Shown here: positions 3,120 through 8,566 of the stretch, in pieces
How positions within the stretch are numbered: the stretch's first letter is position 1
How the letters are laid out: each line of letters starts with the position of its first letter
Origin: a virus
Lineage: Duplodnaviria; Heunggongvirae; Uroviricota; Caudoviricetes
Virus record (IMG/VR): IMGVR_UViG_2671180710_000015
DNA: 8,566 bases
Strand: one strand, 5' to 3'
The notes under the pieces: model-generated
What the model was told of the DNA's origin: nothing
The model's input: the letters and a program-made list of their open reading frames with translations, nothing else
The model's database searches: none
Translations under genes and position numbers: made by a program

Positions 3120-3315
3120 ACCTCTCACTTTTTCGCCTCACTTTTTCAAGCGTCTCACTTCGTCGCAGTTGGGATTTTCGGTTTTTCTATGTGTGTGTTT
3201 CATAAGTATTTTTTTACCCCCTCACTTTTGAGGATGTATACAGGTCGAAAAGTGAGGGAGAGCGGGCTAATTTTGGCCCTCTTTCTATCCCCCTCGCTTT
3301 TGCTCCTCACTTTTA
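3120..3315. repeat. iteron-type replication origin (seven CCTCACTTTT-like repeats plus AT-rich tract)
   Basis: CTCACTT cores at 3124, 3137, 3154, 3221 and 3306; inverted copy AAGTGAG at 3250; variant CTCGCTT at 3293. AT-rich tract about 3182-3218. Lies immediately 3' of the rep gene. Confidence 0.6.
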
Positions 3316-4710
3316 TAGCGGCGCTACATCATCCCCATCGATACGAATAACCCCATCTTTTTCCAGCTTGTACAGCCAGCGCCGGAAGTTTTTCATTTCA
3401 TACCCCAGCTTTTTCATGTCATCACGTAACAGCGGGATCGTGCACTTGTCGCCGTTCTGTGTGCGTGAACGGATGCACCCCCATAGCGCGGTATGGTTTT
3501 CCGTCTTGTTCCCTGCCTCCTCGATGCGCTCCAGTTCAACAGGAGGGCGCGGATCATCCACCACCACCAGCGACGTGATTAATTCACCGTCAGCGTCGGT
3601 AAAAAGCTCCACCACGCGTAAGTCATATGCGGCTTCTTTGAGTTCCTCCGCGTCCTTCATTTTGGTGCATGAGATAACCAGCGCTTCGCTTCCTGCGTCC
3701 TCCCTGCGTATCCGGTATTCAGCATCCAGCGAAGCACGAAATGCACTGGAACCGCGCGCGCCTTTCGTCTCATCCTTGCCGGAATGGTGAACCACCAGCA
3801 CCGTGGCCCCTGTGCGTCGTTTAAGCTCGTCACAACCACGGATAAACGCCCCCATATCACGGGAATCATTTTCATCATTCCCACCAAAGCAACGCGCCAG
3901 AGTATCCAGAATAATCATGCGTACAGGTTTACCCGTTTCCCGCTCCACCTGACGGGCAGCGATAACCATTTCATCAACATCAAGCGGGGCAGCCGGAAAG
4001 ATGGGACGGTTTACCAGATACAGATTTTTCACCTGTTCACCGTGCACAACCTCCCAGGCTTTTACACGACGCGGAACGCCGATACCGCCTTCACCAACCA
4101 CATAGAGAACCGCACCATGCGCCACCCTGCGGCCTCCCCACTGGCGGCCCGTGGAAACGTGACACGCCCACGATCCGGCAAGGAATGATTTATAGGAACC
4201 GCTCGCCCCGTATATGCTGCAAAGCGATACCGCCGGAATAATTCCCTTCACCACGTAATCAAGCTGCGTGTCGTATCCGGCAGATCCCACGCTCATTGGT
4301 AGCTTGGTTTTTCGCTGGTGGCTCAGGCTTTCCCCGCGTTCCCATGTCTCCCTAAGCCGTGGAAGCTGGTCGCTCCATTCCTCCAGCAATTCGAAATTTT
4401 CAGAAAACAGGCGCGCTTCCTGGACTCCTGCGATTGCCAGTTTCGTGGCGATGGTTAACAACTGCACTTCGTCAATATTTCCGGCACGTATCACTTTCGC
4501 CCTGTATCGCCCATCATCCACAATCTGGAGGTTATCCAGTTCGCTTAACTGATAACGCCCCAGGTAAACGGGAGGGACTGGATCGCCTGCTTTTTTGGCC
4601 TGTGCAATGATGTAGTACTCTGCAAATGAGTGAGCATTATCACCCGCAAAAATAACCGCTTCGGTGTGTTTATCTTTCGGTAACAGTTTTACGTTCGGTG
4701 CCAGTTTCAT
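3313..4710 (-). CDS. replication initiator/helicase (RecA-fold AAA_25, DnaB/RepA-like) with winged-helix-like C-terminus
   Basis: 465 aa. Walker A GASGSYKS, Walker B-like MIILDTLARCF, LVVHHSGKDETKGARGSSA. Not P4 alpha-like: no SF3, toprim or zinc-finger motifs seen. ATGA overlap with the upstream 99-aa ORF. Confidence 0.85.
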   Translation of the reverse strand: MKLAPNVKLLPKDKHTEAVIFAGDNAHSFAEYYIIAQAKKAGDPVPPVYLGRYQLSELDNLQIVDDGRYRAKVIRAGNIDEVQLLTIATKLAIAGVQEARLFSENFELLEEWSDQLPRLRETWERGESLSHQRKTKLPMSVGSAGYDTQLDYVVKGIIPAVSLCSIYGASGSYKSFLAGSWACHVSTGRQWGGRRVAHGAVLYVVGEGGIGVPRRVKAWEVVHGEQVKNLYLVNRPIFPAAPLDVDEMVIAARQVERETGKPVRMIILDTLARCFGGNDENDSRDMGAFIRGCDELKRRTGATVLVVHHSGKDETKGARGSSAFRASLDAEYRIRREDAGSEALVISCTKMKDAEELKEAAYDLRVVELFTDADGELITSLVVVDDPRPPVELERIEEAGNKTENHTALWGCIRSRTQNGDKCTIPLLRDDMKKLGYEMKNFRRWLYKLEKDGVIRIDGDDVAPL

Positions 4711-5006
4711 TTTTTACCCCTGAATCCGTTAATCATGGTTTTCAGCTTCTGGATGTTTTCCCGTGCTCTGGCGTTGCTGGTGGGCACGTTATGCGGCGCG
4801 GTCTGTACCAGAGAAAAATCACGCCGGAACTGATAAACAGGCATCACGCAATCATATTCGTAACCTTCACGGCGGTAAGTTACGCACCGTCCCGCCACGC
4901 CCTTAATCATTACCGTGCCGCCGTACTGGTCGCGGTAAATATCACCGCGCGTAAATTTAGGGTGAGTGTTGCCACTGGCAGTTAAGCCAGAATATTTAAG
5001 TTTCAT
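4707..5006 (-). CDS. hypothetical protein (99 aa) coupled to rep
   Basis: Track ORF. GGAGA SD 9 nt upstream of ATG 5004-5006; its stop overlaps the rep start. No family recognised. Confidence 0.55.
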   Translation of the reverse strand: MKLKYSGLTASGNTHPKFTRGDIYRDQYGGTVMIKGVAGRCVTYRREGYEYDCVMPVYQFRRDFSLVQTAPHNVPTSNARARENIQKLKTMINGFRGKK

Positions 5007-5011
5007 TATTT

Positions 5012-5239
5012 TTATTCTCCGGTGTGGGGCGCTTTATTATTTTCGATAATATCCATTGCCTTATCCAGTTCATCAATAACAGGCGATAGTAATGTCTGAA
5101 TGGCTGCAAACATTAATGACGAAGATTCTTCGCCAGATTCCGGCACTTCAATTAATTTGCCTAACAACGCATTCATTTCCTTTGCGCGGATTAATGCGTT
5201 TTCAGAATGAATAAGAACATCAAAGGGTATTTTATGCAT
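5012..5239 (-). CDS. hypothetical protein (75 aa)
   Basis: Track ORF, G-rich SD; 8-nt overlap with the upstream ORF and 5-nt gap to the downstream ORF. Predicted helical, acidic. Confidence 0.5.
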   Translation of the reverse strand: MHKIPFDVLIHSENALIRAKEMNALLGKLIEVPESGEESSSLMFAAIQTLLSPVIDELDKAMDIIENNKAPHTGE

Positions 5240-5429
5240 GACTCACCCCCTGGCGAATACGGGCGGCGAATACAGCAACACAACCGGACGGGCAACGGCT
5301 ACGCGCTTCGCGTTCCGTCCAGGCGGTTACGTGGATGATTTGAGATTCTCCGGCACTCAGTGCCAGAAAACGCCACACAAAGGCCGTTTGTGTGTGTGCT
5401 AGTCGTGGGGTATGATTTACGGCAACCAT
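5232..5429 (-). CDS. hypothetical protein (65 aa), first ORF of the rep operon
   Basis: Track ORF with AGAGAGG SD 7 nt upstream. Contains an 8-bp hairpin (CACACAAA-ggccg-TTTGTGTG, 5374-5394), so a structured leader RNA is an alternative reading. Confidence 0.35.
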   Translation of the reverse strand: MVAVNHTPRLAHTQTAFVWRFLALSAGESQIIHVTAWTEREARSRCPSGCVAVFAARIRQGVSHA

Positions 5430-5502
5430 AAATTTACCTCTCTATAGTGTTTGTGGTTAGACGCCCTGCATGTGTTCCAGCACTGTGGGGCGTTGTTTTT
5501 TG

Positions 5503-5547
5503 GTGCAAGTCACCTTGAAATCTAGGTTACTTTTAGGTGACTTGCAC
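5503..5547. promoter_or_regulatory. paired operator-like sites: 12-bp perfect inverted repeat GTGCAAGTCACC-N21-GGTGACTTGCAC
   Basis: Arms at 5503-5514 and 5536-5547 are exact reverse complements. Each arm is itself GGTG-N5-CACC-like. Located in the divergent region between the rep operon and the plus-strand RHH gene. Confidence 0.45.
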
Positions 5548-5574
5548 TTCAAGTCTTTTTTTATTTTTTTTTCT
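5539..5574 (+). terminator. terminator-like hairpin plus long T-tract (alternatively an UP element or insulator)
   Basis: GACTTG-cactt-CAAGTC (5539-5555) followed by T8-A-T10 (5556-5574). It overlaps the right operator arm and sits just upstream of a TATACT -10 (5578-5583). Confidence 0.3.
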
Positions 5575-5613
5575 CCGTATACTGAACACCACCTAACAGT
5601 AAGGAGAACAGAG

Positions 5614-5793
5614 ATGCCAACAGGTACAACCAACAACAAGTCACAACAAAAAACTGCTAGAGTACCTCTAGACGTTTTAAGCGAAATGAATTTGGTAAAA
5701 GAAGAAAACGAAACAGACGCACAATTTATCGTTACTGCCATGCGCGGCGAAATCAAACGCCGCCAGCGTCGCAAGGCCAAAGAATCAGAATAA
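5614..5793 (+). CDS. small ribbon-helix-helix-like DNA-binding protein (59 aa)
   Basis: Hand-defined start: AAGGAG SD (5601-5606) 7 nt before ATG 5614. MPTGTTNNKSQQKTARVPLDVLSEMNLVKEENETDAQFIVTAMRGEIKRRQRRKAKESE shows a strand-helix-turn-helix pattern. The 107-aa track ORF is an N-terminal over-extension across the operator and T-tract. Confidence 0.5.
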   Translation: MPTGTTNNKSQQKTARVPLDVLSEMNLVKEENETDAQFIVTAMRGEIKRRQRRKAKESE

Positions 5794-5850
5794 TCACTAT
5801 CAGCGCCGTGGTGTGAGGTACTACGGCGCATTGCTTTACAGGGCAGTACC

Positions 5851-6078: not shown

Positions 6079-6297
6079 GTGCACAAAACCGAACTATGAA
6101 ACGGATTATTCCGTTTCCGGGGCGTTTGTGTGTGTATAAAGAGTAAGCTATGCTCTTTTATAGCCATAATCGTTACCTCAATTAATGGTTTGGTTAGAAG
6201 CCCGTTGGTGTTCATAGCGCCAGCGGGCTTTGCTTTTTGTGTTGATTGTGTGTAATATGTCACTACACATAAATACATTACATGAGGTGTAATTAAC

Positions 6298-6477
6298 ATG
6301 TCAATACACAAAAACGAAAGGCGTGGTAATCCTCCGTTCCAGTTCCGTTTAGATCCTGACTTACGGGAAAAGATGGAAAAGGCACAACAACATGACGGCG
6401 ATGATTCTCTTGCTGCCTGGATAAAGCGAATAATCCGCAAAGAATTACAGCAACGCGGCATAGAACCCAAAGGGTAA
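6298..6477 (+). CDS. Arc/MetJ-type ribbon-helix-helix DNA-binding protein (59 aa), below ORF-track cutoff
   Basis: Hand-translated: MSIHKNERRGNPPFQFRLDPDLREKMEKAQQHDGDDSLAAWIKRIIRKELQQRGIEPKG; PFQFRLDP strand plus two helices is the classic Arc-like pattern. GAGGTG SD; candidate promoter TTGCTT-N17-TAATAT (6230-6258); GTGTAAT repeats at 6250 and 6287. Confidence 0.6.
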   Translation: MSIHKNERRGNPPFQFRLDPDLREKMEKAQQHDGDDSLAAWIKRIIRKELQQRGIEPKG

Positions 6478-6565
6478 TTACATTGCCCACCAGCCTGATA
6501 GCGGCTATCATTCCCGTGCTTATGTTTGGGATCACATAAGGCGCAGCAGGTTAATTGTTCACAAG

Positions 6566-6594
6566 GGCGTTCCGGCAACGGGGCGCTTTTTGTT
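6566..6594 (+). terminator. intrinsic terminator (GNRA tetraloop hairpin plus U-run) closing the plus-strand module
   Basis: 9-bp stem GGCGTTCCG / CGGGGCGCT with three G-U wobbles, GCAA loop (6575-6578), then TTTTTGTT. Sits 28 nt from the convergent alpA stop. Confidence 0.5.
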
Positions 6595-6621: not shown

Positions 6622-6828
6622 TTACGCAGCCGTTCCGCGTGCTTCCTGCTCACGTTCTTTCATCCATGCGATTACGTCTTCCTCATACCATCCGCGACGG
6701 CGTAAACCAACGCGAAAACCCTGCGGAAATTCTCCGGCGTTGATCATGCTTTGAAGCGTGCTGTCTGCCTTGATGTGGATAAGTTTTTTTACTTCCTGGC
6801 GAAAGATGACTTTTTTGATTGCTTCCAT
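6622..6828 (-). CDS. alpA: AlpA-family phage transcriptional regulator
   Basis: 68 aa; STLQSMINAGEFPQGFRVGLRRRGWYEEDVIAWM matches the AlpA HTH family pattern. AAGG SD. Co-directional with int as in Gram-negative PICIs. Confidence 0.85.
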   Translation of the reverse strand: MEAIKKVIFRQEVKKLIHIKADSTLQSMINAGEFPQGFRVGLRRRGWYEEDVIAWMKEREQEARGTAA

Positions 6829-6905
6829 CGTGATTTACCTTGTGAATCCGGTGTATTCCGGTGACAAATACGGTAAATCATCGGATATGGGTAAAAACAG
6901 TTCCC

Positions 6906-6921
6906 ACCGTTTTTAAACGGT
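6906..6921. promoter_or_regulatory. 16-bp palindrome ACCGTTT-tt-AAACGGT upstream of alpA
   Basis: Exact 7-bp arms. A nearby direct repeat TCCGGTG occurs twice 10 bp apart (about 6847-6865). Candidate regulator or recombination-factor site; function not inferable from sequence. Confidence 0.3.
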
Positions 6922-6960
6922 TAGAATCGTTTTTTATGTTGGTGATTTGAAAGGGATTTA

Positions 6961-7324: not shown

Positions 7325-8566
7325 CTAAACGGCTCGGATACCCCTTTTACCACTGGCGAGGGTTACGCCCGTCGCCGCAGCCTCGACAAATTCGCCCCAC
7401 CAGCGCATAAGCACCACGCGTTTTTCTATGTAGTTGCTCCGGTTGTATGCCCGTCTCACTTCGTTAGTGTCGACGTGGGCAAGTGCGGCCTCGATTACGT
7501 CCGGCTCGAATCCTTCCTCGTTCGCTGCTGTACTGAATATGGCGCGTAATCCATGAGACACCAGCACGCCAGCGAACCCCATGCGTCGTAATGCTGCGTT
7601 TGCTGTCTGGCTGTTCATTGGCTGCCGTGGGTCTTTCAGACTCGGGAAAACATAATCGCGGTGGTGGCTGATTGGTTTCATGGCCTCCAGCACCGCCATA
7701 GCCTGACCGGAAAGTGGGATAACGTGATCCCTGCGCATCTTCATGCGTCCGGCGGGTATCGTCCAGCGTTGCGCGTCCAGGTCGATTTCATCCCACCGCG
7801 TTGATGACGCTTCGGCGGGACGGGTTACGGTCAGTAACTGCCATTCAATCAGTAATCTGGTCTGCCGTTCTGTTGCCGATACTGATAAAGCCTGCATAAG
7901 CTCCGGCAACTGTTCGGGGCGGATTGTTGGCATATGTTTTTTTACAGGGGAGGGGAACGCCTTACGCACATTCATAGCCGGATTGGCATCAATCAGCCCA
8001 CTGTTGGCGGCGTAATCCATTACCTCATTAACGCGCTGTAAAACCCGTTTGAGTGTTTCCAGGTTGCCGCGCTCCTTGATGGGGGTAAGCACCTCAACGA
8101 ACCTGCGAGCGGTCAGGGTGTCTATTGGGGTGTTGCCGATGAACGGGAATACATATTTATCCAGCGATCGCCAGATGTCTTTAATCGTGTTGGGGGCCAG
8201 ATTCTGGCTGATTTTCACCTGGTACCATGCCGCCGCCACATTTTCGAACGTGTTCCCTTGTCTTCGGGCCTCTGCCTCTCGTTTTTTCTTCTCATGGCCC
8301 TGCGGGTCAGTTCCGGCACTGATTAACGCTCTGTACTCGCTACGGCGTTTTCTGGCATCAGCCAGGGAAACATCATCAAGCGATCCAAAACTCAGCAATA
8401 TTCTTTTTTTGTCCGATGGCCGGTAGTAGGAAAATCGCCAGAGTTTTGATCCGGACGGTTTGACCAGGAGAAAAAGCCCTCCGCCGTCCTGTAGGGTGTA
8501 TTCCTTTTCCGCTGGTCTGGCTGCTTTGATCTGCACCGTGGTTAATGGGGGTGTTTTTCTCGCCAT
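7325..8566 (-). CDS. int: tyrosine-type site-specific integrase, P4-like
   Basis: 413 aa. N-terminus MARKTPPLTTVQIKAARPAEKEYTLQDGGGLFLLVKPSGSKLWRFSYY matches the P4-integrase arm-binding pattern; C-terminal HGLRAIFSTAA and RRAYNRSNY carry the His/Arg box and catalytic Tyr. ATG is the last codon of the window, so an upstream start cannot be excluded. Confidence 0.9.
   Translation of the reverse strand: MARKTPPLTTVQIKAARPAEKEYTLQDGGGLFLLVKPSGSKLWRFSYYRPSDKKRILLSFGSLDDVSLADARKRRSEYRALISAGTDPQGHEKKKREAEARRQGNTFENVAAAWYQVKISQNLAPNTIKDIWRSLDKYVFPFIGNTPIDTLTARRFVEVLTPIKERGNLETLKRVLQRVNEVMDYAANSGLIDANPAMNVRKAFPSPVKKHMPTIRPEQLPELMQALSVSATERQTRLLIEWQLLTVTRPAEASSTRWDEIDLDAQRWTIPAGRMKMRRDHVIPLSGQAMAVLEAMKPISHHRDYVFPSLKDPRQPMNSQTANAALRRMGFAGVLVSHGLRAIFSTAANEEGFEPDVIEAALAHVDTNEVRRAYNRSNYIEKRVVLMRWWGEFVEAAATGVTLASGKRGIRAV

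Follow-up and report, generated by a model that had tools for sequence, protein, structure and literature searches.

Organization of the locus

The window analyzed here, a stretch of DNA of 8566 nt, is part of an Escherichia coli capsid-forming PICI-like phage satellite. Its minus strand carries genes for a capsid protein (Phage_capsid), a small terminase, PerC, and SSB. The genes that define the region under study are the following:

3313–4710, minus strand: RepA/AAA_25 helicase (Pfam)
4707–5006, minus strand: DUF4222 gene (Pfam)
5012–5239, leftward operon: ORF of 75 aa between the Icd-like gene and the DUF4222 gene
5232–5429, minus strand: Icd-like putative division inhibitor, first gene of the leftward operon (NF033153, E = 5.5e-18)
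5614–5793, plus strand: ylcI/ynfO-family gene, 59 aa (NF041551, NCBIfam YlcI_YnfO_N, E = 4.7e-17)
6622–6828, minus strand: AlpA-type regulator gene (Pfam)
7325–8566, minus strand: tyrosine integrase gene (Pfam)

The gene order of the leftward operon is backed by the RefSeq annotation of a locus that is 98% identical (L001); a 98% identical region of E. coli RM14516, annotated in the same way, adjoins tRNA-Pro. Within the operon, the Icd-like ORF (5232–5429) overlaps the next ORF (5012–5239) by 8 nt and the DUF4222 gene (4707–5006) overlaps the helicase gene (3313–4710) by 4 nt, which suggests translational coupling along the transcript. On the other side, ylcI is followed by two further small ORFs on the plus strand. 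In the window and in the loci L001–L006, ylcI lies between int and rep and is divergent from the replication operon, which is the order in which PICI master-repressor genes are found. The gap between the Icd-like gene and ylcI measures 184 bp and contains the repeats described below.

Repeats in the intergenic region

We found in this gap a perfect 13-nt inverted repeat, GTGCAAGTCACCT (5503–5515) and AGGTGACTTGCAC (5535–5547), whose arms are separated by 19 nt. When loops of up to 40 nt are allowed, no other perfect inverted repeat in the 8566-nt window reaches 13 bp, and this one is the longest; in 40 dinucleotide-preserving shuffles of the window the longest inverted repeat measured 11 bp. 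The original prediction had described a 12-bp inverted repeat with a 21-bp spacer, which is real and is contained in the longer repeat, and had placed two GGTG-N5-CACC-like sites about 33 bp apart; each arm indeed reads GGTG-N5-CAC(C), with a centre-to-centre distance of 34 bp. A search for further operator copies across the window gave none beyond chance. The elements of the gap, with those predicted by comparison of related loci, are:

5423–5500, plus strand: candidate cis-antisense small RNA of about 75 nt, bordering O1, with conserved structure
5502–5514, left arm: O1, operator-like site GGTGCAAGTCACC (sequence and conservation)
5529–5524, minus strand: predicted −10 of P_L, TAACCT, 17 bp from the −35 and weak (3/6)
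5536–5548, right arm: O2, operator-like site GGTGACTTGCACT (sequence and conservation)
5539–5555, plus strand: hairpin GACTTG-CACTT-CAAGTC (terminator scan), specific to this element
5552–5547, minus strand: predicted −35 of P_L, TTGAAG, a conserved hexamer
5556–5572: T7-A-T9 tract; on the minus strand an A-rich block upstream of the P_L −35, on the plus strand the −35 position and spacer of P_R
5578–5583, plus strand: predicted −10 of P_R, TATACT, 30 nt before the ylcI start codon
5581–5593: O3 position, ACTGAACACCACC, which shares bases with the 3′ end of TATACT and with the predicted start of P_R

Two local details were adjusted. A 6-bp hairpin followed by T8-A-T10 had been reported as overlapping the right arm: the hairpin exists (GACTTG/CAAGTC, 5539–5555), but the tract reads T7 (5556–5562), A (5563), T9 (5564–5572), that is, 17 nt and not T19. 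Similarly, the TATACT hexamer is present at 5578–5583, but it does not follow the tract directly, with 5 nt (CTCCG) intervening.

Conservation and covariation of the sites

Our comparison covered about 105 related loci of E. coli and of 11 further Enterobacterales genera, drawn from six annotated E. coli loci, 80 IMG/VR loci, and 22 loci from other Enterobacterales, including Cedecea, Citrobacter, Pectobacterium, Dickeya, Serratia, Morganella, Proteus, Xenorhabdus, and Photorhabdus. Of 5426 complete E. coli genomes, about 970 contained homologues of the intergenic region. All loci share one layout: the start codon of the Icd-like gene, a conserved hairpin, O1, a TAnnnT hexamer on the minus strand, O2, a TTGnnn hexamer on the minus strand right after O2, a T-rich interval of 24–26 bp, a TATACT-like hexamer, O3, a Shine-Dalgarno sequence, and finally the ATG of ylcI. 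The distance from the −10 hexamer to this ATG is exactly 30 nt in the loci compared, and O2 and O3 are 45 bp apart, start to start, in nearly all of them (range 44–46). The distance between O1 and O2 depends on the type, being 34–35 bp in some types and 22–25 bp in others.

The flanks of the sites are constant and the N5 core is variable. We distinguished 11 core types: ACTTG (that of the window), ACTCC, AATCG, TGGCC, GAATC, AAATA, AAACA, TCTTA, GCACC, xGGTA, and GTTAG. Among seven type representatives, the O1 and O2 cores of the same locus match at 32 of 35 positions, which only 2 of 5040 label permutations equal, and the O3 and O2 cores match at 28 of 35 positions (1 of 5040 permutations as good); the mean match across types is 1.9 of 5. 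In the window's own type ACTTG, O3 is degenerate and matches O2 at a single core position of five, whereas outside this type it matches at 3 to 5 of the 5. Type AATCG illustrates how strictly the sites are kept: over a range that extends from E. coli to Pectobacterium, Dickeya, Morganella, and Proteus, O1–O3 hardly change, in contrast to the diverged spacers between them, and O1 stays nearly unchanged over six genera between flanks that diverge.

The orientation of O1 also differs between types. It is the reverse complement of O2 in types ACTTG, AAATA, TCTTA, and GAATC and a direct copy of O2 in types AATCG and TGGCC, while the GTG/CAC flanks are symmetric in all types regardless of this orientation. 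The inverted arrangement described in the original prediction finds no support as an essential feature, O1 being a direct repeat of O2 in several types. Since the orientation of O1 relative to O2 changes from type to type, we regard an RNA hairpin or RNA pairing as ruled out. Covariation combined with flips is the signature of DNA sites that would be read by a two-fold symmetric protein of variable specificity. Poor conservation of the repeats in relatives had been named as an observation that would speak against an operator function; on the contrary, the sites are conserved in position over the approximately 105 loci.

Predicted divergent promoters

A consensus promoter scan of the window called neither P_L nor P_R, and the assignment of both promoters therefore rests on the conservation of their hexamers over the types. 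For the leftward promoter, the TTG of the −35 is kept in all but one of 17 tabulated representatives (the exception, L042, has TTAATG), with the variants TTGAAG, TTGACG, TTGAGG, and TTGCGG. A TAnnnT hexamer stands at a spacing of 17–18 bp in every type and agrees with TATAAT at 3 to 5 of 6 positions. O2 fills the spacer between the predicted −35 and −10 of P_L, and O1 covers about +4 to +16 of the predicted transcript. The transcripts would begin near 5517 (minus strand) from P_L and near 5590 (plus strand) from P_R.

For the rightward promoter, the TATACT hexamer is either invariant or replaced only by TATAAT, TATATT, TATAGT, or CATAAT in relatives, and it behaves as a conserved −10 box, as had been proposed from the window. 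P_R has no good −35 (CTTTTT at 5555–5560). The interval of 24–26 bp is T-rich in the tabulated representatives (T fraction 0.48–0.73), and in most types a T run stands just upstream of TATACT. Read on the minus strand, the tract of the window is A9-T-A7-GAC, placed directly upstream of the P_L −35. From the known UP consensus and from this position, we infer that it may serve as a UP-like element of P_L.

YlcI follows the operator type

Comparison of the neighboring proteins indicated that YlcI tracks the core type: each of the 57 distinct YlcI proteins is associated with one type only. Proteins from different types share at most 78% identity, and within a type identity descends to 64%. As ylcI is only 20 bp from O3, linkage alone would give part of this correlation. 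Yet the icd-like gene is equally close to the sites and is uncoupled from the type, with 26 pairs of loci that encode Icd-like proteins at least 90% identical and belong to different types; for DUF4222 there are 220 such pairs.

Mosaic break points adjoin O1 on its left side and fall among the final ~8 codons of ylcI (L011–L016 vs. L021 and L070, and the YlcI C-termini of all loci), from which the co-inherited unit would consist of the operators and the N-terminal two thirds of ylcI. Moreover, small-RNA hairpins of one type, and likewise identical C-terminal tails of YlcI (e.g., RRKAKEQE), are combined with different operator types.

Predicted fold of YlcI and candidate specificity residues

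Modelling points to YlcI being a ribbon-helix-helix (RHH) protein, with a beta-strand, helix, helix fold. The AlphaFold2 monomer built from a 57-sequence alignment (pLDDT 86) has an extended N-terminal segment followed by helices at residues 19–28 and 35–58. A prediction from the single sequence gave one long helix, and the alignment-based run was used for the fold. Pfam searches with YlcI assigned no family at E ≤ 0.01, RHH families included; CB_ParB_C and PSK_trans_fac appeared as weak matches (E 0.03–0.04). The NCBIfam family YlcI_YnfO_N, to which YlcI does belong, carries no functional assignment. When the YlcI family profile was compared with the PDB, the best match was Arc of phage P22, which was weak (E = 0.7), and a direct hhalign comparison of the family with Arc gave P = 1.3e-4 and a probability of 54%.

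In this alignment, YlcI residues 12, 14, and 16 fall on Q9, N11, and R13 of Arc. These three are the base-contacting side chains in the structure of Arc with its operator. R16 is invariant in the YlcI family alignment, and residues 14 and 12 are the most informative on the operator type among the positions that are invariant within a type; residue 5, in the N-terminal arm, carries the highest type information overall. Residues 12–14 pair with the cores as follows: QKT with ACT(T/C)(G/C), QLN with AATCG, ALK with TGGCC, KLQ with GAATC, MTT with AAATA, L(F/T)T with AAACA, and SVT with TCTTA. This correlation suggests that operator specificity may be set by side chains of the YlcI beta-strand. 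It also provides a ready-made specificity-swap test, in which QKT would be changed to QLN and binding compared on GTGAATCGCAC and GTGACTTGCAC. The proposal that the repeats are operators in a divergent control region accords with all three features, namely the conserved positions, the mutual covariation of the cores, and their covariation with a protein modelled as RHH.

A candidate antisense small RNA beside O1

The plus-strand small RNA candidate opposes the 5′ UTR, the Shine-Dalgarno sequence, and the start codon of the Icd-like gene. Its predicted −10 is TATGAT (5411–5416), which every type has as TAnnnT, in many cases preceded by a TG, and the predicted start lies near 5423. The first stem-loop, SL1 (5424–5458), exposes a CCUCUC loop complementary to the Icd-like Shine-Dalgarno sequence, while the second, SL2 (5460–5494), together with a U run, forms the terminator of the candidate. 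Folding gives −30.4 kcal/mol (z = −3.85), and the consensus fold is specific to one strand: 17 pairs and −21.4 kcal/mol were obtained for the plus strand, compared with −4.4 kcal/mol for the minus strand; 9 of the 17 pairs show compensatory changes and many are G-U pairs. The hairpin was found in about 970 complete E. coli genomes.

An Rfam search of the whole window and of positions 5360–5640 gave nothing at threshold, and the microRNA and lncRNA matches that appeared were noise. SymR (RF01809) aligns with the candidate from end to end, with a score of 25.9 bits that is far below the gathering score of 61. Both RNAs have two hairpins and a length of about 77 nt, and both lie opposite the 5′ end of a potentially harmful gene, with its Shine-Dalgarno sequence and start codon; this gene is SymE for SymR and the Icd-like gene for the candidate. 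The candidate resembles SymR in layout and is not a SymR member.

We observed a second tandem copy of the small-RNA-like module at 6112–6242 (plus strand), which contains a terminator-like hairpin (6197–6231) and adjoins a decayed icd-like start. It is followed by TGTAAT/ATTACA repeats at 6250–6295, just upstream of a second, very divergent RHH-like gene (6298–6477, plus strand; NF041551 E = 0.003) whose product is 19% identical to YlcI.

Proposed control of the leftward operon and alternative readings

On the comparative sequence evidence, we consider it probable that positions 5502–5593 are the core, made up of operators and promoters, of a divergent control module where YlcI dimers would bind O1–O3 and repress P_L, a predicted sigma-70 promoter. 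The three 13-bp (G)GTG-N5-CAC(C) sites would be recognition sites for dimers of the 59-aa YlcI/YnfO RHH protein, and the element-specific N5 core would be read by residues 12–14 of its beta-strand. Because O2 lies inside P_L and O1 just past its predicted start, YlcI bound to O2 (in the P_L spacer) and to O1 would shut off the operon of the Icd-like, DUF4222, and RepA-helicase genes. At O3, which lies over the P_R −10 and start, binding would bring about negative autoregulation of ylcI in most types; as O3 is degenerate in the element of the window, this loop may be weak there. How repression might be lifted is a matter of speculation: alpA converges on the ylcI cluster, and hence AlpA-driven transcription and a helper-encoded antirepressor are both possible release routes. 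The original prediction had also seen in the region a compact bistable switch, for which nothing gave support. One attached regulator gene with negative autoregulation through O3 does not by itself make such a switch.

AlpA is the known activator of Gram-negative PICIs. In EcCICFT073, both the alpA promoter and the island genes downstream are activated by it (PMC6092414), and induction of EcCIEDL933 requires it (bioRxiv 10.1101/2022.09.08.507074). This requirement in a related element is left unexplained by YlcI repression and counts against the proposed model. It has a place in a different reading, in which YlcI binds the sites and does something other than simple repression, for instance by activating P_R from O2 or as a roadblock or target for AlpA-driven read-through from the alpA side. 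P_R has no −35 and O2 is centred ~48 bp upstream of the predicted P_R start, and the alpA and ylcI clusters are convergent. O2, however, lies inside an optimally spaced (17–18 bp) P_L core promoter, the classic place of a repressor, and we judge this reading unlikely.

The role of AlpA in inducing related E. coli islands and activating island promoters (PMC6092414; bioRxiv 10.1101/2022.09.08.507074) could also mean that the AlpA-type regulator (6622–6828, minus strand), and not YlcI, binds the sites, and AlpA had indeed been named as a possible binder. The distribution of AlpA proteins speaks strongly against it. In 97 pairs of loci the operator types differ although the AlpA proteins are at least 90% identical, and the AlpA of the window is 100% identical to that of L051, a locus of type GAATC; conversely, 144 pairs of the same type have AlpA proteins less than 50% identical, down to 23.5%. 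Identical AlpA proteins occurring with different operators make AlpA a very improbable reader of O1–O3. It could act elsewhere in the region, on a conserved sequence.

Still less likely is that the repeat, or the 6-bp hairpin with the T tract, works as an intrinsic terminator or RNA hairpin that ends the small RNA or structures a leader. The terminator scan does list 5539–5555 with the T run as terminator-like, and the 13-bp arms, taken as RNA, fold to −23.4 kcal/mol (z = −5.2). But the 6-bp stem, with 3 G-C pairs, forms only in type ACTTG and cannot form in types AATCG, AAATA, TGGCC, GAATC, and TCTTA; in types AATCG and TGGCC, where O1 and O2 are direct repeats and make no long hairpin, the sites are conserved all the same. 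In addition, the small RNA has its own conserved terminator ending near 5500, and the T tract stands upstream of the conserved −10 box, between the −35 positions of the two promoters and the rightward −10. A functional hairpin or terminator is not supported. The 6-bp hairpin is probably incidental and exists because in this type the core ACTTG is by chance complementary to CAAGT, a conserved stretch of the leftward −35 region.

An equally slight chance is left to the reading of the repeats and the A/T-rich tract as iterons of a replication origin bound by the replicase. Repeated sites by an A/T-rich tract near replication genes do resemble an origin; however, the annotated replicase class varies inside one operator type, with AATCG occurring with both 'DNA primase family' and TOPRIM/DUF927 proteins and AAATA with both DUF927 and primase family proteins, the sites coincide with conserved promoter hexamers, which runs counter to iterons, and the origin of characterised PICIs is located 3′ of rep (PMC6092414).

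Finally, the co-varying short repeats near an icd-like gene, with an antisense RNA candidate adjoining, recall the immunity systems of P1 and P4, but we find it scarcely credible that they act as RNA by transcript pairing, as in the P4 CI RNA (seqB with seqA and seqC) or P1 c4, given that their orientation flips between types while the GTG/CAC flanks remain symmetric, which turns complementarity into identity, that O2 lies upstream of both predicted start sites, and that the small RNA region recombines independently, L011–L015 combining ACTTG sites with the hairpin of TGGCC loci.

Comparison with known systems

Repression by YlcI, as we propose it, would be of an ordinary kind, a small repressor acting on back-to-back promoters, and would be new for this class of elements. 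Its closest functional analogue is the immI region of P22 (Arc, Mnt, Pant/Pmnt, sar). In both cases a small RHH gene stands by its own operator between back-to-back promoters, the operator overlaps promoter cores, and the first gene on one arm has its ribosome-binding site covered by an adjacent short antisense RNA. The likeness extends to the proteins, in which the variable residues 12 and 14 and the invariant R16 of YlcI fall on Q9, N11, and R13 of Arc; even so, the similarity is marginal (E = 0.7) and YlcI is not an Arc family member. The window differs from P22 in having three 13-bp sites at a distance from one another where P22 has a single 21-bp operator to which a tetramer binds, in the lack of an Mnt partner and of an antirepressor gene, and in that the controlled operon carries replication genes.

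For RHH sites in either orientation, the closest precedent is the Omega repressor of plasmid pSM19035. Omega binds cooperatively to contiguous 7-bp heptads, while the sites of the window are 11–13 bp, pseudo-palindromic, and 22–45 bp apart. In role, the Stl/Rpr repressors of SaPIs come closest: the gene lies between int and the replication module and is divergent, with sites in the intergenic region, and many specificity variants exist among related islands, as for YlcI. The Stl proteins, however, are larger helix-turn-helix proteins unrelated in sequence, and derepression by helper-phage proteins has been shown for Stl. None of P22 immI, Omega, and Stl is a family match by sequence.

The P4 CI and P1 c4 systems with icd share with the window an Icd-like gene at the head of the operon, co-varying repeats that set the types, and a small RNA by the promoter. 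The Rfam C4 model (RF01695) gave no match at E ≤ 1 in the window, nor at E ≤ 10 in positions 5360–5640. Since the repeats of the window flip and sit on promoter hexamers, they would act on DNA, unlike those of P4 CI and P1 c4, and the small RNA candidate is, again unlike them, a true cis-antisense RNA.

Possible wider role of YlcI/YnfO proteins

For Gram-negative PICIs, activation by AlpA has been described and the global repressor called 'unclear' (PMC6092414). In the open-access papers and preprints searched, we found no description of YlcI/YnfO function or of a repressor-operator module in Gram-negative PICIs, nor any experiments on ylcI. A conserved and diversifying RHH regulator with matched operators is a concrete candidate for this repressor, and might also account for the coexistence or mutual exclusion of related satellites. 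Going further, we tentatively put forward, as a reading somewhat short of an even chance, that YlcI/YnfO RHH proteins are the missing PICI master repressors, or immunity determinants, with at least 11 specificities, which helper phages or AlpA-driven transcription would have to defeat in order to induce the island, and with a SymR-like antisense RNA guarding the Icd-like gene. Its scope would be the capsid-forming PICIs and related Icd-plus-primase satellites across Enterobacterales, and the proteins would have diversified through a simple two- or three-residue code in the beta-strand.

Other features of the region

Strong terminator-like hairpins were detected at 5803–5829 (plus), 6563–6590 (plus), and 6987–6966 (minus), that is, after ylcI, after the second RHH-like gene, and after an 83-aa ORF downstream of int. 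The plus-strand genes may accordingly be separate transcription units, and from these positions alpA appears to have a promoter region of its own. About 65–105 bp upstream of alpA, at 6893–6934, two adjacent 20-nt repeats, AAACAGTTCCCACCGTTTTT and AAACGGTTAGAATCGTTTTT, also form an imperfect palindrome and could be a putative regulator site for the alpA promoter. In one related element (L003, 2004–2783, minus strand), a gene for a KilAC-domain antirepressor lies between ylcI and the AlpA-type gene, which recalls the ant genes of the P22 and P1 immI regions.
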